DNA from: Dictyostelium discoideum
Lineage: Eukaryota
Direction of reading: 5' to 3'
Length of the DNA: 64,000 nucleotides
Assembly: GCA_000004695.1 (NCBI GenBank)
Contig: CM000151.3
Span: 4,736,001-4,800,000 of the forward strand
Part shown: one piece after another, positions 17,697 to 52,900 of the stretch
Position numbering within the stretch: the first letter of the stretch is position 1
Layout: each line of letters opens with the position of its first letter
The notes under the pieces: generated by a model
What the model saw: the letters and a program-made list of their open reading frames with translations, nothing else
What the model was told of the DNA's origin: nothing
Databases searched by the model: none
Translations under genes and position numbers: made by a program

Positions 17697-17940
17697 AAAT
17701 TGGTAGAAAAAAATCACTTTTTAAATTTCCCAAAAACCAAAAAAAAAAAAATAAAAAAAAAATAAAATAATTGATCAAGATATTTTTATCTTTTTTTTAT
17801 TTTTGTTATTATGATCAAAAATTAATTTTATTTTTTTCTTTTTTATTTTTTTTTAGTTTTTTGAGAAATTCGAGCAGTGGGAACGCTTTTCTATCTGTTG
17901 TCCTAAAACCCTAAGTTTCAAAGAATTTTGATTTTAATTT

Positions 17941-18010
17941 CCTTTTATTTTTTATTTTTCCAATATTAGAAACTTAATATTGGAAAAATAAAAAATAAAA
18001 AATAAAAAAA
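17941..18010. repeat. ~27-bp-arm palindrome/hairpin in an intergenic spacer.
   Basis: TTTTATTTTTTATTTTTCCAATATTAGAAACTTAATATTGGAAAAATAAAAAATAAAA has one mismatch in the arms and a 4-nt loop (AAAC). Confidence 0.7.
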
Positions 18011-18212
18011 TATTATATGCTCTGGTCAAATTTTTCAAAAAACTAAAAAAAAAACTAAAAAAAAAATAAAAAAAAAATAAAATCAATTTTTGGTCATACA
18101 AAATTAAAAATTAAAAACACTTTTTTTTTTTTTTTTTTTCGTTTCACAATTTCTTTTCTTTAAAAAAAAGGTAATAAAAATAAATAAAGAATTTAATATA
18201 TATTAATTAAAA

Positions 18213-18847
18213 ATGTCACTGATATTGGATATAAATAAAAATTCAACTGAAAATAAAAACAATCTTGAATCAACAGGAATATTATTTCAAAAAGTTTGGG
18301 AGAATGCAGTGATAAAAAATAAAATTTTATCATTTTTAAAAGTAAAGACAACAACATCTTTGTTATTACCAAATTTTAGAGGTAACAAGATTAAATTATC
18401 AGTAGAAGGATTTATGCCAAAAGATGATATGTCAAATAAAACACAAGTATTAAAAGAAAATAAATATTCCAAATTCGATGAAATGGTTAATGTATCCAAG
18501 ATGATCAGTTATGGCAATAAAGAATTATTAAAATACAAAGTATCAATAAATTATGAAGACTTACATTTCTCAAATAATGATATACATATCATACTTCAAA
18601 ATTTTAAAGATGAAAATTACGATTATCAATTCTATCAAGATCTTTTTAATAATTATCCATTTTATTTCACTTTAGACGAAACAAAAAAGAATAAACTATT
18701 AAATAAAATAATTGTAAACGATAATTTATTAGCATTAAAAGTTCTCATCAATCAACTCAACCCAATCATTACATACAATAAATTTATAATGGCAGTTATA
18801 AAAGGATCTATAGATATTGTAAATTATCTTTCAAATTCAACTACTAC

Positions 18848-18909
<62 letters not shown>

Positions 18910-19760
18910 TTAAATTAAATGAAGATGATATTATTAATGTATTCAATTTTATTTTTTTCGATGAAACTGAAGATATGGATTTTGATCCTGATTTAGAGGA
19001 GGAAGATTATTTTCCTCCTTTAGTGGAAACAAAATACCCAATAATGGATTATAGATTTTTTCCATTGGATAATATAGAGATTGTCTTTTTAAAATCGATA
19101 CGCGATAAAAAAAATATGATTCAATGTTTAATGAATTTAGGTGTAAAGCTTCCAACAAAGATTAAAGAACCAATTAAATATTTATTTGATTTATCCATGT
19201 GTGAAGATCTTTGTTTTTTCCCTAATATTACATTAAAATGGCTAATTGAAATATATGAATGTATTCATTATGTATCACCATTGGTTTCTAATGAATCATT
19301 ATCAGAGGCAAATAAAAAGCTTTCAGATTTATTATATTCAAAAGAAAAGTTTGAATCAATAAAGAAATTATTCAGTGAAATCGAATTAAATTCAACTTTA
19401 AACCGTTTAGATTCAAGAGAAGAAATCAAACAAATGTATAAAATACTCACAATGGTTTCTCATATTCATCCTATGGATTACCAAATTAGATATGAAGAAA
19501 TAAACAATGGATTCAAAAGTAATTTTAAACTTATTTTTAAATATAGTGACCCAACATATCAAAAATTATTTATTGAAAATTTTATTAGCTATATAGAAAA
19601 TAATGATTTTTGTGATGAAAGCTGTAATGAAACTTATTTCTTGGTCAATTCACTTATCGATAATGATAAAGTAGAATATTTAAAAATGGCTTTAAATTCA
19701 TTCGATTATTCAGATTCGTATTCGGATTCAGATGTTATTATCAATATTAAATCATTTTAA
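18213..19760 (+). CDS. Hypothetical lineage-specific protein, 515 aa, with a 22-residue poly-N tract. Possible paralogue of the 13133..16672 gene by N-terminal motif.
   Basis: An ATG-initiated ORF. The N-terminal segment LFQKVWENAVIKNKILSFLK parallels LFWKVFHNKFIFNIIIEQI in the upstream gene. A coding (AAT)n repeat lies at 18845..18905. The stop overlaps the start of the next ORF. Confidence 0.55.
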
Positions 19761-20751
19761 AACTAAATATCCAGAAGATTATTATAGTCAATGTAGTAAA
19801 TTAGATTTCAAGGAAAATCAAAAACTATTTTCAAATGATTTCATTTGTAACAACTATCAAGATTTTAAAAAGAATATATTAAAATGTAATAAAGATAACC
19901 CATTAAATTTCTTTCCAGTTTCCAAAAATTTGAAATTAAATCAATTCGTTGCAATTTTAGAATCAACACCACCTCAACAAAAGTATTCATGTTTATTAAA
20001 TCCAGAAATTTTGGCATGGATCTATGAGAATAGAGAATGTGATTTAAAATCTGGTAGATGTATACAACCAAATTTTGTAACATTATTCAGATATTTATTT
20101 TACACCAACCAATTTTCAAAAGCATTAAATGATATTGATTATTTTAATAATCCTGGTGACCTTGATTATTTTAATTTTAAAAATAATCATAATGATGAAA
20201 AAATCCATTCTATTGAAGAAATAATAAAAGCCATGAAATCAAAAAAAGAATTCAAACAACAACAAATTGATGAATTTAATACAATTTTTAAAATAACACT
20301 ATTATTCATAATTCCAGGTTTAAAAAAACTTATAAAATCAATAATCAAATCTAATAATTTTAATTATTTAGAAATACTTTACAACTACATTAATAACACC
20401 AGTAAAGAAAAGAAATTTGAAAATCTATTGGAAGAATTAAAAGATTTAATATTTCAGTATATTAAAAAGTACAATAAAATCAGTTGTTTAAAATTTTTAT
20501 TGAAATTAGATCAAGATAATAAGTCATTCTTTTCTGAAGATTTGTTAATATTTTTTTACAAAGAAATAAATACAAATTATTCAATAAATCAAGAAATTTC
20601 AAATATTTTAAAAATTTATTTCAATTTTAACATTGAAGATAAAATAAAAGAAGAAGATGAAAAAGAAGAAGAAGAAGAAGAAGAAGAAAAAGAAGAAGAA
20701 GAAGAAGAAGAAGAAGAAGAAGAAGAAGAAGAAGAAGAAGAAGAAGAAGAA

Positions 20752-20783
<32 letters not shown>

Positions 20784-20814
20784 CGATGATGATGACGAGA
20801 TGAAGGAGGATTAA
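19732..20814 (+). CDS. ORF of 360 aa ending in a ~50-residue poly-E/D tail. It is either a separate gene or the frameshifted continuation of the 18213..19760 ORF.
   Basis: The ORF starts at an ATG embedded in GATGTT, 29 nt before the TAA of the preceding ORF. No GT..AG intron explains the +1 shift. The (GAA)n microsatellite 20649..20795 encodes the EEEE... tail, followed by ...DDDDDEMKED*. Confidence 0.4.
20649..20795 (+). repeat. Coding (GAA)n microsatellite of ~48 units, giving a poly-Glu tail.
   Basis: gaagaagaagaa... with a few aaa/gag interruptions, inside ORF 19732..20814. Confidence 0.9.
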
Positions 20815-21027
20815 AAAGAGATGACAAAGTCTAAAAAGAAGATTAATTTTATTTAAAAAGTATTGTTTTTAACATCTCAGTGAATAAGCTATAACCTCAA
20901 TTAATCAATGTTCAATAATCCAGTTTCATTTTTAAAAAAATAAAAAAAATAAAATTAATATTAGTTCGAAATTATCTATATATGCCATATGGCAGATGAT
21001 ATTGTTGTGGTGAGTTTTCACATTAAA
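20803..21027. repeat. Copy 1 of a ~230-bp direct duplication covering the last codons, stop and 3'UTR of the 19732..20814 ORF.
   Basis: ...AAGGAGGATTAAAAAGAGATGACAAAGTCTAAAAAGAAGATTAAT...GAATAAGCTATAACCTCAATTAATCAATGTTCAATAATCCAGTTTC...ATTAGTTCGAAATTATC...TATGCCATAT... recurs at 21456-21690 with ~90 % identity. Confidence 0.8.
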
Positions 21028-21059
<32 letters not shown>

Positions 21060-21074
21060 TTTTAAAAACAATTT

Positions 21075-21345
21075 ATTAAACCAAAACAATAAAAAAACTA
21101 TTTATAAACAGTTATTTGATTGTTTTAAGATTAAATAACAATTTACTTTAATAAACCATATATTAAACAAATAATCACTTGTTGAGTTTGCAAATAAAAA
21201 AAACAAAAAATTGAAAAATTAAAAAAAAAAAAAAAAAAAAAAAAATAGACCAAACTTGAAAGTAAATTGTTATTTAATTTTTAAACAATCAAATAACTGT
21301 TTAAAAATAGTTTTTATCTTGGAAAAATGGTTTGTGATTGTTTTT
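21075..21345. repeat. Long imperfect inverted repeat (hairpin arms of ~60-80 bp with a ~100-bp loop) lying between the two duplicated copies.
   Basis: The left arm 21095-21151 (AAAAACTATTTATAAACAGTTATTTGATTGTTTTAAGATTAAATAACAATTTACTTTAA) is the reverse complement of 21256-21315 (TTGAAAGTAAATTGTTATTTAATTTTTAAACAATCAAATAACTGTTTAAAAATAGTTTTT). The outer extension CCAAAACAAT pairs with ATTGTTTTTGG. Confidence 0.75.
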
Positions 21346-21455
21346 GGATTTAATGCTTCAAAAAAAAAAATAATAAAAAAAAAACAATCAAAAAATGAAT
21401 ATGGGTAACTATGAAAAAAATATTTTGATAAAAAAAAAAAAAGAAAAAGAAATGG

Positions 21456-21690
21456 AGAAGGAGGATTAAAGAGAGATGACAAAGCCTACAAAGAAGATTA
21501 ATATAAGTTATTTAAAAAGTATTATTTTTTAACATATCAATGAATAAGCTATAACCTCAATTAATCAATGTTAAATAATCCAGTTTCTTTCTTTAAAAAA
21601 AATAAAAAAAATAAAAAAAATAAAATTAATATTAGTTCAAAATAATCATTGTATGCCATATATCTATGGTAGATAATATTATTCATAACT
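21456..21690. repeat. Copy 2 of the duplicated gene-3'-end/3'UTR segment. It retains a ...EKED* mini-ORF and stop.
   Basis: GGAGAAGGAGGATTAAAGAGAGATGACAAAGCCTACAAAGAAGATTAAT...GAATAAGCTATAACCTCAATTAATCAATGTTAAATAATCCAGTTTC... Confidence 0.8.
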
Positions 21691-21825
21691 TTTTTTTTAA
21701 ATTATCTATTTTAATTTTAGCAGATTCTTTTTCTTAAAAAAAAAAATAAATAAATAAAAATTAACATATGGATAAGTTTCTTTTTATAAAAAATAATAAC
21801 AAATTATTATTTATTTTTTTATTTT

Positions 21826-24145
21826 TTAATTTTCATTTTCATCTTCATCAGAAAAATCAACATAATCATCTAAAAATCCTGGTGCTGGTTGTTGAGTACC
21901 TTGAGTAGCTGCTAATTGTCGTTCTCTTTGAATGGATGGATCATTCCATGGTAATAAAGAATGAAGGAAATTTAAAACTGGATTGGCAGGACCAGTGTAA
22001 TCTGGATTCTCTTGTAATAAAGGTTCTAAAGGTTGTTGTTGTTGATGTTGTAAGTTTTGTTGTTGTTGTTGTTGTAATTGTCTTAATTGTTGTTGGACTC
22101 TTCTTTGTTGTTGTTGATTTCTTTGATGAATTTGGAAACCTTGACCAATACCACCTCTTCTAAGATGTTGTGGTGGTGCTTGATTTGGATCACGTTGTGG
22201 TAGGATATCTCTGAAACCTTCAGCATGCATTGCTTCGATAATGTCTGGTGTTAATCTATTGATAACGTCAGAGTATTCTGATAGAACTAAATGATCGAAG
22301 ACCTCTTGATTCACAGTTTCATACTCTGCTTTGATTGAATCACTCAATTGTTTTACCATTGGATGTTTGGCGGCTACTTTATCTAATACAATGATAACAT
22401 TTGATTTTAACCAATCTAAAATTTCAGGAGTTTGCCAACATTGATAATTTCTCTCGACAAACAAAGTCACCAAATGATCGATACGTTTCTCCAATGGGTC
22501 ATCCTTAAAGAATGGATCATTTTCAAGTGTTATTATTTTACCATTCTTTGGAATTGAGAAATTAGTTTTCAATTTCTCCAACAATGGTTGAAGCACCATT
22601 GGGAATGATATTAAGGCCTTTTGTAAGAGTATATCACTTGATTCTTCAACACTTGATGATTTCGATGATGATGTTGATGTTGATGTTGATGTTGTTGTTG
22701 TTGATTTCTCTCTCTCCAAATGATACATTGCCAAAGCAGCAGAATAACAAAAGTTTGGTAACAATGATAGATCGCCTTGATTGGTTGGTGTGATAGTTTT
22801 TAACTTTGTGAATAAATCTACCAAGAATCTATACTGTTTGGATCTAATGGAGTAGTAATCGATGATTAAACGTACATACAATGGATCAGAGTAATCCCAA
22901 GTTAATAAAATTTTACAAAGTTCTAATGCGGTTCTATGACATGCCCTTCTACCAATGATTTGAATAAATCTAAAGATTGCCAAGAAACATGATTTATTTT
23001 GGTCATGTCTATATTCGAATCTACAATTACCATTGAGTGGATTAAAGAGATGATGGAATACATTCTCAAATGCAAATACTGCCATCTCTACGAAATCACC
23101 CGCTTTTGAATAATCTGCAGTTTGTAAACAAACTTGACCCAACTGTAATAATGAATCAATATGATATGGATGATATCTAATAATTTCAACTAAACTCATT
23201 GGGTCATGAGTTGTTAATGCTAAATAAAATTCTTCTTGAATATTTGAATATGTTTGACCCCATTTAATTTTAAAATAATTTATACCATCTAAAGATTGTT
23301 GTTGTGATTTTAATTTTGGTGATACTGTATTGGTTGTAGTAGTAGTTGTAGTTGTGGTTGTTGTTGCATTTGTTGGTGATGATGGTACTTTATCATCATT
23401 ACATATTTCCATTACCATAAATCCTCCCATGACATCAGGCCATTCAGGTTTTGGTTGAACAAATATATAGTTTTTCTTTTTAAAATGATGTACACTCTTT
23501 TTCTTTTGACCTTTAATATCTGAACTCTTACAACCAAATAATTTTTTCAATTCGTTATCTGGGTTTAAATTAACTGTATTAATTTTAAATAATTCTCTAA
23601 ATTCTTTATCTTTAATCTCAATTCTATATAATATTATTTATTTTGTTAAATACATAATAATATAAAATTAGTAAAATATTATTATTAAAAAAAAAGTAAA
23701 AAAAAAAAAAAAAAACATACTCTGATAATATTATTGGTGGCGATGATTTTTCAATCTCATTTAATTCAAGTTCATCTTTTTCTTGTTGTTGTTGTTTTTT
23801 CTTTTGTTGTTGTTTTTTCTTTGCTTGTTTTTTTTTGGATGCTTGTTGTTGTTGCTTTTGTTTTTGTTGTTTTGAAGATAATTGTTCTTTAGCTTGAGGT
23901 TTCTCTTTTTCAATTTCTTCTTCTTCTTCTTCTTCTTCTGATTCTTCTGATTCAGAATCTTTTTTATCTTCATTTTCATCTTGGTCACTTTTGTCGTCAT
24001 CTTCGTCTGATAAGTTTAACATTGAAAATTTTGGTTTTACACTATTAACAACAACAACAACTTTTTTTTCACTTCCCTCATCCGAACTACTATTTACATG
24101 TTGTACGTTAATATGTTGTTTCTTTTTTAATGCTTTTGTTGACAT
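21826..24145 (-). CDS. TCF25 / Rqc1 family protein (ribosome quality control complex subunit), 740 aa. Two exons: 24145..23721 and 23623..21826.
   Basis: Exon 1 (MSTKALKKKQ..., then an acidic S/E/D stretch and a basic K/Q stretch) ends ...IILS+ga. The donor is GTATGT at 23720..23715 and the acceptor ..atatAG is at 23625-23624. The phase-2 join gives ...LNEIEKSSPPIILSEIEIKDKEFRELFKINTVNLNPDNELKKLFG, matching the human TCF25 N-terminus (MSRRALRRL..., ...RIEDSTGLNR...HLNPDTELKRYFG). Exon 2 holds the conserved core (...IFRFIQIIGRRACHRTALELCKILLTWDYS-DPLY...). The intron is 97 bp. Confidence 0.85.
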
Positions 24146-41535: not shown

Positions 41536-42601
41536 TTTTTTTTTATTTTTTTTATATTTATATTATTTTTTTATTTATTTTTATTTTGATTATTTTTAAA
41601 TTATATTATCTATTTTCAAATTTATTTAATTATTTTATTTTTATTTTTTTTATTATATTTTAATTATTTATTTATTATTATTATTAATTAATTAATTAAT
41701 TTTTTTATTTATTTACTTATTTATTTAATTATTTTTTTTATTTTGTTTTAATAAAAAATAAATAAAATAATTTTTTTTTTTTTTTGACTAAAATTTTATT
41801 TGATCTTCTAATTTACAATACAATAAAATTACTATCTGTAATTTTATTTGATTTTTTTTATTATACAAAAATAAGATTAAAAAAAAAAAAAAAAAAAAAA
41901 AAAGATTTTTAAAAAAAGAAAAAAAAGAAATATAAAAAAAGAAAAAGCTTCTAAAAAAAAAAAAAATAAAAAAAAAAAAATATTTTAATCAAAACAGTTT
42001 TAAAAATAAAAATAAATGATAAAGAGTAAAAAAAATTTCATATCAAATGATTCACCCAAATCATACATTCGATTAGATATTTATAATTTTTTTTTTTCGG
42101 TTAATTATTTTTTTTTAAAAACCACACACGAAAATGTTCATATAAAAAAAAAAACCCTGCATAAAAAAAAAGGTGTTTTTAATGGAAAAAATGAAAAAAA
42201 CCAAAAAATTTAAAATGCGATTTAAAATGAATAAAATTGATAAAATGAAATAAAAAAAAAAATTTAAAATTTAAAAAATTTATAAAAAAAATAAATAAAA
42301 ATAAAATATAAATAATAAAAAATAAAATATAAAGTTTATTAATAAAATATTAATCTTATTAATTTAATTTTAAAATCAAAATATTTTTAACAATTTTTTT
42401 AAAATTTTTAATATAATTCTAAAACTTAATAAAAAAAAATATTAAAATATAAAAAAAATAAAAAAAAATAAAAAAAAAAAAATGAAAAAAAAAAACCATC
42501 AGATTTGGCTGCAAATCAATTCGTTAGTGATGTGAATAATTAAATGATTAATTTTTTAATTTTTTTTGGCAAACCACAAGAAAAACTTTTAAATATCCAA
42601 C

Positions 42602-51154: not shown

Positions 51155-51347
51155 AACCTCCTCTTCCCCCATAAAGAAGGAGTTTGAACGAGCAAATACG
51201 CGATCTCCTTGAAGAGCCGGACTCACGTATAACCCTCGCCCAAGGAGGAGATGTCTAACCATCTTTTAGCCCTAACCTCTTCCGGAAGAGCTCCCCACCC
51301 TCAGCCCCCGGATAATTTGATTTGATTTGATACAGTATTTTTTTTTT
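51155..51347 (+). other. GC-rich (~50 % GC) island of ~190 bp ending in a T-run, directly 5' of the repeat cluster. Candidate structured ncRNA, or the unique terminal part of the repeat element.
   Basis: AACCTCCTCTTCCCCCATAAAGAAGGAGTTTGAACGAGCAAATACGCGATCTCCTTGAAGAGCCGGACTCACGTATAACCCTCGCCCAAGGAGGAGATGTCTAACCATCTTTTAGCCCTAACCTCTTCCGGAAGAGCTCCCCACCCTCAGCCCCCGGATAATTTGATTTGATTTGATACAGTATTTTTTTTTT. It has internal complementarity (CCTCCTC/GAGGAGG; the palindromic CTTCCGGAAG). The base composition is highly atypical for Dictyostelium intergenic DNA. Confidence 0.25.
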
Positions 51348-51354
51348 CAGTAAA

Positions 51355-52346
51355 TATCCTCACCTAAAGACCACCACATGGACTCATAACCACACACCTT
51401 CACCCAAAGACCACCACATACTGACGCATACCCACCCATCCAAACTCCATAAAATTGATACCTAAAAATACTGAATTAAAAATAATTGATTATTATTCTG
51501 TTTTTGCTTTTTATTATTTTATTTTTTTCTTTTTATTTATAATTATATATAATTCTTACCCTATAATCATAAAATATTAAATAGTTACCAATTGACCACC
51601 ACACCTAATACAAATGATACATTAATTAATTAATTTTTTTTTTTACAACACATACCTTCACCCAAAAACCACCACATGTTGACGCATACCCACCCATCCA
51701 ACCCCATTTGCTTTATACCTAAAAATACTGAATTTAAAATAATTAATTATTATTTTTTTCTTTTTATTTATAATTATATAATTCTTACCCTATAATCATA
51801 AAATATTAAATAGTTACCATATTACTACCACACCTAATACAAATGATTTTTTTTTTTTTTTTTTTCACAACAATCATCATTTGTATTAGGTGTGGTAGTA
51901 AATTGGTAACTATTTAATATTTTATGATTATAGGGTAAGAATTATATAATTATAAATAAAAAGAAAAAAATAATAATTAATTATTTTAAATTCAGTATTT
52001 TTAGGTATAAAGCAAATGGGGTTGGATGGGTGGGTATGCGTCAACATGTGGTGGTTTTTGGGTGAAGGTATGTGTTGTAAAAAAAAAAATTAATTAATTA
52101 ATGTATCATTTGTATTAGGTGTGGTGGTCAATTGGTAACTATTTAATATTTTATGACTGTAGGGTAAGAATTATATATAATTATAAATAAAAAGAAAAAT
52201 ATAAAATAATAAAAAGCAAAAACAGAATAAAAACCAATTATTTTTAATTCAGTCTTTTTAGGTATCAATTATATGGGGTTTTGGTTTTTGGGTGAAGGTA
52301 TGCGTTGTAAAAAAAAAAATTAATTAATTAATGTATCATTTGTATT

Positions 52347-52393
<47 letters not shown>

Positions 52394-52626
52394 TTTTCAC
52401 CACACACACCTTCACCTAAAGATCACCACATGTTGACGAATACCCACCCATCCAACCCCATTTAATTGATACCTAAAAATACTAAATTTAAAATAATTAT
52501 TATTCTGTTTTTGCTTACTATTATTTTATTTCTTTTCTTTTTATTTATAATTATATAATTCTTACCCTATAAAACATAAAATATTTATGACTTACCTTAA
52601 AGTTCATCAATTGACCTCATACAAAT

Positions 52627-52680
<54 letters not shown>

Positions 52681-52900
52681 CACAACACATACATTCACCT
52701 AAAGACCACCACATGTTGACGAATACCCACCCATCCAACCCATATGCTTTATACCTAAAAATACTAAATTTAAAATAATTTATTATTATTCTGTTTTTTC
52801 TTTTTATTCATATGATAAAAATATTTAATCTACCACCTATAAATTAAATTAAAAATACCTACCTTGAAAGACCACTCACCGTATGACGCACACACATAAT
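51355..52900. repeat. Cluster of at least 6 copies (full and truncated, both orientations) of a 200-280 bp non-coding interspersed element with a conserved GC-rich ~50-nt 5' core. Unclassified; a possible MITE/SINE-like Dictyostelium repeat.
   Basis: Direct copies start near 51391, 51651, 52392 and 52681. Inverted copies lie at 51876-52078 and 52089-52305, with a fragment at 52313-52346. The shared core is CCTTCACC(C/T)AAAGA(C/T)CACCACAT(G/A)(T/C)TGACG(C/A)ATACCCACCCATCCAA(C/A)C, followed by ..TACCTAAAAATACT(G/A)AATT.AAAATAATT..ATTATT.CTGTTTTTGC...TTATTTATAATTATATAATTCTTACCCTATAA..ATAAAATATT.A..., and in some copies ...ACCACACCTAATACAAATGATACATTAATTAATTAATT. The copies are separated by poly-T/poly-A runs (up to ~70 T at 52345-52392 and 52628-52680). 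Confidence 0.8.
51651..52078. repeat. Near-perfect palindrome: two ~200-bp copies of the element in inverted orientation around a T-run at ~51845-51866.
   Basis: The sequence 51651-51845 equals the reverse complement of 51876-52078 except for 2-3 substitutions (e.g. ACCATATTACTACC vs ACCAATTTACTACC). Confidence 0.85.

Follow-up and report, generated by a model that had tools for sequence, protein, structure and literature searches.

We investigated a repeated gene tail in a 64,000-nt stretch of Dictyostelium discoideum DNA (GCA_000004695.1, contig CM000151.3, positions 4,736,001 to 4,800,000; hereafter the window). The end of an open reading frame (ORF) at 19732-20814 and the 3' untranslated region (3'UTR) behind it occur twice, as an upstream copy A and a downstream copy B, with a long inverted repeat, or hairpin, between them. 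The locus is a case of ordinary tandem-array birth and death, that is, of gene-family decay: the repeated tail is very probably the stump of a sister gene deleted from a tandem array, and the hairpin a separate insertion specific to the lineage of the window. In a single genome, such a stump resembles a duplicated 3'UTR flanking a hairpin and suggests exotic mechanisms, and comparison with one close relative settles its nature. The coordinates of all features are collected in Table 1.

Two gene tails and a tandem array

The tail duplication reported in the initial annotation, including the stop codon and 3'UTR, is real. The cores of copies A and B align with 187 matches, 15 mismatches and 6 indel events, corresponding to an identity of 92.6% across aligned bases (83.5% with gap columns included) and a Kimura two-parameter distance (K2P) of 0.078. 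The copies are spaced 655 nt apart, start to start, and their local alignment score of 268 exceeded the maximum of 174 observed among 2963 AT-rich 250-nt segment pairs of the 64-kb window. Copy A starts 10 nt upstream of the TAA of the 19732-20814 ORF, and copy B keeps ATG GAG AAG GAG GAT TAA at 21452-21469, the MEKED* mini-ORF that had been noted there. No further copy of the direct repeat was found in the window.

A protein search with the 360-aa ORF (19732-20814) returned three proteins from new assemblies labelled D. discoideum or cf. discoideum. The loci of two such assemblies, L013 and L014, are ~8% diverged from the window, while L016, a contig of GCA_054883475.1 labelled Dictyostelium discoideum, matches it with 99.9% identity and 8 mismatches across 23.4 kb. 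Both L013 and L014 are syntenic with the window, with 92.4-92.5% identity in the region of the neighbouring gene Tcf25, and both hold a tandem array of the gene in question: four units (c0 to c3) in L013 and two in L014, beyond which lie Tcf25 and the gene that comes next in the window too. The same 3'UTR, in one copy, ends every L013 unit and the last L014 unit; the first L014 unit has a degenerate version only. The last unit is split or truncated in L013 and L014 alike. Between c1 and c2, L013 also contains a piece of the Tcf25 3' end with about 92 nt of its coding sequence (L013 4173-4357, equivalent to window 21737-21917, 95.7%). This piece pinpoints the original duplication breakpoint and shows that the array expanded through segmental tandem duplication.

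The two copies in the window pair with different units of this array. The p-distances between UTRs were 5.4% for A and c0/c1, 6.0% for A and c3, 6.5% for B and c3, 10.1% for B and c0/c1, 8.6% for A and B, and 7.2% for c1 and c3, giving a four-point sum of 11.9 for ((A,c1),(B,c3)) versus 15.8 and 16.1 for the alternatives. Nine of the 16 differences between A and B are private to B, which fits a stump without function. Copy A is preceded by a (GAA)n tract, like c0 and c1. In front of copy B stands AATATTTTGATAAAAAAAAAAAAAGAAAAAGAAATGGAG, alignable with the A-rich, decayed end of the c3 coding sequence, and copy B continues into the Tcf25 flank, again like c3. With blastn, window 21449-21718 matched L013 11043-11312 at 91.6%. 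The alignment with the c3 coding end of L013 covers 21418-21469, and coding-derived sequence is contiguous with the UTR of B; within this relic the window reads AATATTTTGATAAAAAAAAAAAAAGAAAAAGAAATGGAGAAGGAGGATTAA, and L013 c3 reads AATATTATGATAAAAAAAAAAAGAAAAAAAAGAAGATGATGATCATGATGATGATGAAATGAAGAAGGAGGATTAA. The DNA at 21311-21407 has 80-85% identity to L013 4002-4069, L013 11311-11376 and L014 11437-11524, and corresponds to the spacer behind an inner unit's UTR. Judged from these alignments, copy A is probably the UTR of an inner unit and copy B that of the last unit, so that the copies are not sisters and are both older than the split from the L013 lineage. From the pairing with different units and from the flanks, we infer that the repeats are paralogous gene tails brought together by a deletion.

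The segment behind the core of A that probably forms the distal end of its UTR was compared with the canonical UTR end, and the similarity of 21004-21066 was not significant against shuffles. At the corresponding place, relatives read TTCATAxC-T7-9-AATTATCTATTTT. The T run of this segment is T26 in the window and 23 nt in L016, and T7-T9 in all relatives and in copy B. Within the core, a 30-nt block, CTCAATTAATCAATRTNCAATAATCCAGTT, also occurs at L013 207-236, 3849-3878, 7991-8020 and 11148-11177 and at L014 11297-11326. It is unchanged even in unit c2, whose UTR is 24% diverged outside the block, and may be a conserved regulatory element of the array gene's 3'UTR.

More distant comparison, with D. 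purpureum, had been suggested for this locus and was uninformative for the intergenic region: D. purpureum and P. violaceum lack a homologue of the array gene, and their Tcf25 neighbours are unrelated. As an observation in its own right, the D. discoideum and cf. discoideum assemblies differ by ~8% in coding DNA at the array locus, and the D. discoideum label appears to cover deeply diverged lineages.

A hairpin missing in relatives

The inverted repeat described between the two copies was confirmed, with 63-nt arms that are 92% complementary, an A-rich loop of 109 nt, and a strong predicted fold (z about -11). The RNA fold of 21080-21330 was predicted at -64 kcal/mol (z = -11.5 for the + strand, -9.7 for the - strand). 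No shuffle out of 200 reached such a stable fold, and the hairpin was one of three outlier loci among 834 AT-rich 250-nt windows. The arms have diverged by a K2P of 0.072-0.084, representing 4-5 mismatches.

In the relatives, the UTR end passes directly into TTTTTATCT(T)GG, without a hairpin. Three independent spacer alignments, to L013 c1, L013 c3 and L014, all start at window 21308-21311, and the hairpin is missing at each of these sites. It is identical in L016, whose sequence across the interval of hairpin and UTR end departs from the window just twice, at 21023 (T/C) and in the length of the T run (23 vs 26). By this comparison of filled and empty sites, the hairpin is probably inserted or fold-back-generated DNA that is extra in the window's lineage. 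The event that produced it is separate from the origin of the direct repeats.

We stop short of calling any single origin of the hairpin probable. A local origin, through fold-back (snap-back) inverted duplication of adjacent spacer DNA, is plausible and was rated slightly above insertion of a small non-autonomous DNA transposon of the miniature inverted-repeat transposable element (MITE) or foldback type, which we hold as a tentative second option. A clear snap-back case is present in the homologous c3 spacer of L013, between the last unit and Tcf25: a perfect 88-nt palindrome at L013 11459-11546, with 44-nt arms, no spacer and the centre AGATCT. L014 holds only its left half, which is ancestral sequence. 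The L013 palindrome is a clean, recent and independent inverted duplication, formed in situ by fold-back. The inverted symmetry of the window hairpin continues, weakly, into ancestral flank and covers 11 nt of it, TTTTTATCTTG. Unlike the L013 palindrome, the hairpin of the window contains a loop (109 nt), its arms have diverged by 8%, and for one arm plus the loop (~170 nt) no source was detected in relatives or array units. Against shuffles, neither the left outer arm's similarity to the inverted spacer (p about 0.36) nor the right arm's similarity to the canonical UTR end reached significance.

A mobile element would account for the inverted repeats at the termini (63-nt arms at 92%), for the short length (about 245 nt), for the AT-rich, non-coding sequence, and for presence in the window's species with absence at every comparable site in relatives. 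It would not explain symmetry that enters the ancestral flank by 11 nt, which is unexpected for a transposon end. No unambiguous target-site duplication was seen between filled and empty sites, where a 2-5-nt A/T-only duplication is still possible. A search covering ~0.15 Mb of dictyostelid DNA, ~0.1 Mb of it from the window's species, found no second copy of the hairpin in the 64-kb window, in ~44 kb of the same species (L015, L016) or in ~42 kb of the relatives (L013, L014). No described MITE family is known for D. discoideum, and we counted this against the transposon. A match of the left arm at 41816-41858 (45 nt, 78%) has no inverted partner and was judged a chance similarity. An outer 'palindrome' at 21028-21385 was also rejected as a structure, being largely an ancestral T run opposite an ancestral A run.

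Two lineages thus carry different palindromes in homologous spacers, in the window a hairpin of 235 nt that follows an inner-type unit, in L013 the 88-nt palindrome that follows the last unit, and these independent palindromes are a mildly interesting lead. We consider it unlikely that the spacer behind the array gene's 3'UTR, between convergent genes, is a hotspot of de novo palindromes, with the D. discoideum hairpin perhaps giving rise, through read-through from the decaying gene, to a long double-stranded RNA that feeds RNA interference.

Proposed history and competing explanations

The following history, with the direction of events set by parsimony, would account for the arrangement. The common ancestor would have carried an orphan gene of ~920 aa in several tandem copies beside the convergent Tcf25, with each copy ending in the same ~260-nt 3'UTR. 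In the window's lineage, an illegitimate deletion at short homology would have joined the spacer of an inner copy to the last copy, at a point ~40 nt short of the end of a reading frame that had already decayed. The deleted interval would correspond to L013 ~4125 to ~11005, roughly 6.9 kb, and the resulting order would be gene - UTR A - spacer - 40-nt coding relic - UTR B - Tcf25. The abrupt start of the repeat, 10 nt upstream of the stop, does not mark a breakpoint, as the paralogues differ upstream of this point in a low-complexity acidic tract. In a separate event, confined to the window's lineage, ~245 nt with 63-nt inverted arms would have entered the spacer behind copy A. Other decay at the locus comprises a 152-nt frameshifting deletion, loss of the spacer behind B, and expansion of the T run. 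Behind copy B, the window lacks the spacer with which L013 and L014 continue after the UTR of the last unit.

Several observations weigh against this history. The junction at 21408-21429 falls in low-complexity A/T-rich DNA and is not placeable to a single base. The phylogenetic signal in the UTRs is thin, with 3-4 sites common to B and c3, and A is nearly as close to c3 (6.0%) as to c1 (5.4%). The relatives by which the events can be dated are ~8% diverged. Finally, divergence is the same in the direct repeat (K2P 0.078) as in the hairpin arms (0.072-0.084), which a single-event model predicts; this is best read as a coincidence on small counts, given 4-5 arm mismatches.

Equal divergence, together with the order direct repeat - palindrome - direct repeat, is what would be left by one replication error, of the template-switch, fold-back or microhomology-mediated break-induced replication (MMBIR) type, that re-copied the gene's 3' end and also made the inverted repeat. 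Such a footprint was put forward in the initial annotation, and we regard it as highly improbable. A is nearer to c0/c1 (5.4%) and B nearer to c3 (6.5%) than A is to B (8.6%), B has a coding relic of the c3 type while A follows a (GAA)n tract, the DNA from the hairpin to B is ancestral spacer known from relatives, and whole genes lie between the corresponding UTRs there. Repeats and hairpin are accordingly not one event, and what stands of the proposal is that the hairpin is inserted or fold-back DNA. The layout superficially has the same order, direct copy - inverted segment - direct copy, as the duplication-inverted triplication-duplication (DUP-TRP/INV-DUP) rearrangements ascribed to fork stalling and template switching (FoSTeS) or MMBIR. 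In the window, by contrast, the direct copies predate the species split, pair with different units and were not made with the inverted segment.

The repeated tail might also be viewed as the terminal repeats of an element of the long terminal repeat (LTR) type, similar to a terminal-repeat retrotransposon in miniature (TRIM), or as the target of a retroposition with very long target-site duplications. A polypurine tract at 21430-21451 lies directly before B, TGG follows shortly after A, and the minus strand reads AATAAATT and then A26 beside copy A. Both versions were ruled out by comparison with the relatives, leaving them practically no weight: the 'terminal repeat' is a single gene 3'UTR behind each unit, the polypurine tract is what remains of the last unit's acidic coding tract after decay, and the presence of T7-T9 in all relatives and B shows the T run to be ancestral. 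TG..CA, a primer-binding site and a short target-site duplication are all absent. The possibility raised earlier that the duplicated UTR matches a multi-copy transposon terminus was therefore half right, in that the UTR is multi-copy but belongs to a gene family, not a transposon. No tRNA was found in a scan of the window, and tRNA-targeted TRE retrotransposons are therefore unlikely.

A functional role, with the tails serving as alternative 3' ends or the hairpin as a hairpin-RNA or miRNA gene, would agree with the strong fold on both strands and with the 30-nt block, invariant in every unit UTR that retains it. We consider such a role very unlikely. The hairpin is not conserved in relatives, the upstream gene is frameshifted, and copy B holds the most private changes. 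Rfam gave nothing credible, either for the whole window at the gathering threshold or for 20600-21900 at E <= 10, and 14-mers from the arms did not occur in the supplementary miRNA sequences (hairpin and mature) of PMC6161686 and PMC11014262. It had been proposed that polyadenylation-type signals in both copies provide alternative 3' ends, which received no support from the sequence: AATAAA is ubiquitous, at its background frequency of 14 per kb in the AT-rich DNA of the window, and poly(A)-type signals are for that reason uninformative here. Pattern scans of public collections, none of which contains a dictyostelid genome, gave 0 matches in two metagenome scans and one viral scan, and 10 scattered 20-mer matches in bacterial and archaeal genomes were dismissed as chance.

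Deletion of an array unit remains the preferred explanation, and it agrees with known birth-and-death tandem arrays in several respects. Close lineages differ in copy number, with four units in L013, two in L014 and a single unit with a stump in the window. Units arise from segmental tandem duplication that carries along a fragment of the neighbouring Tcf25, and frameshifts, truncations and short-homology deletions erode the members. The window differs from such arrays in that its stump keeps just the last ~40 coding nt and the UTR, and so mimics a duplicated 3'UTR, not a pseudogene. The locus records how quickly an orphan array has turned over among lineages that carry the D. discoideum label, with several deletions at short homologies.

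The surviving gene, Tcf25 and other features

Table 1. Features of the repeated-tail locus; positions are those of the window unless marked L013
Feature	Position	Strand	Comment
Surviving tandem-family gene	18213..20814	+	inner-unit ('c1') type; two overlapping ORFs, 515 and 360 aa
Junction of 152-nt deletion	19722..19739	+	between 19729 and 19730; intact copies flank it with direct repeat AGA(T)GTTATT
Copy A	20802..21006	+	last 10 coding nt, stop codon and 3'UTR core of the surviving gene
Conserved 30-nt UTR block, copy A	20896..20925	+	invariant in all unit 3'UTRs that retain it
Probable distal end of A-unit UTR	21007..21066	+	TTCACATTAAA-T26-AATTTATTTT; placed by position only
Lineage-only DNA holding the hairpin	21067..21310		~245 nt; left boundary approximate, right well defined
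Left arm of inverted repeat	21087..21149		63 nt
Right arm of inverted repeat	21259..21321		final 11 nt overlap ancestral spacer
Ancestral spacer behind inner-unit UTR	21311..21407	+	contains AATCAAAAAATGAATATGGGTA, a 22-mer identical in the L013 c1 spacer
Putative junction zone of multi-kb deletion	21408..21429	+	both parents A-rich + ATT(T/A)TGAT, short homology
Relic of last unit's decayed coding end	21430..21469	+	~40 nt; includes MEKED* mini-ORF (21452-21469)
Copy B	21457..21718	+	core 21457-21683; UTR end reaches 21718; putative 3'UTR of deleted last array unit
Conserved 30-nt UTR block, copy B	21556..21585	+	identical to the block of copy A
Putative junction of further deletion	21712..21718	+	about 190-230 nt lost; microhomology TAATTTT / TAATATT
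Tcf25 homologue	21826..24145	-	convergent; exons 24145-23721 + 23623-21826; 740 aa
L013 c0	L013 1-310		3' end only
L013 c1	L013 841-3950		intact 923-aa ORF
L013 c2	L013 4907-8052		about 16-24% diverged
L013 c3	L013 8607-11312		adjoins Tcf25

The ORF that ends in copy A had been treated as a gene of its own, and is instead the downstream portion of a gene that begins at 18213 and has suffered a frameshift. Its two ORFs on the + strand, 18213-19760 and 19732-20814, are not paralogues of each other. With blastn, the gene matched L013 at 92.2% (18050-19743) and 90.8% (19730-20990), the target being the intact 923-aa gene at L013 993-3764. Alignment to L013 c1, c2 and c3 and to the last L014 copy showed that 152 nt present in all intact copies are missing from the window, and this deletion shifts the frame and leaves two overlapping ORFs. 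Neither ORF was assigned a Pfam family, and exact database records were found for neither the 360-aa nor an 837-aa ORF. The annotation of L016 gives an 843-aa product over a 2602-nt span across the deletion region, which by arithmetic implies a 70-nt GT..AG gap at 19718-19787; this gap may reflect either an error of gene prediction or an intron that has newly arisen.

Upstream of the surviving gene, an imperfect palindrome at 17791-18117 consists mainly of T runs opposite A runs (75-nt arms, 76%) and contains a perfect 26-nt inner inverted repeat (17943-17968 / 17975-18000). Homologous sequence was observed in the promoter regions of L013 units, in both orientations (L013 614-867 and 8543-8413).

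The convergent neighbour was identified as a Tcf25 homologue by Pfam PF04910 (E = 1.6e-81), and its 740-aa product is also called in L016. Four T/C differences between the window and L016, at 24064, 24067, 24094 and 24135, fall inside 72 nt of its exon 1 (- strand) and make up 4 of the 8 mismatches across 23.4 kb. They represent either a local transition cluster or a sequencing artefact.

The window as a whole is very AT-rich dictyostelid DNA, and a further repeat cluster was observed at 51340-52810, with no long ORF nearby and no relation to the hairpin at 21087-21321. It comprises units of ~230-280 nt with the motif CACCTAAAGACCACCACATG, in direct and inverted orientation. The cluster holds an 864-nt near-perfect palindrome, with 425-nt arms at 51430-51854 and 51869-52293 (96%) and a 14-nt spacer, which forms the strongest predicted fold in the window at -130 kcal/mol per 250 nt.

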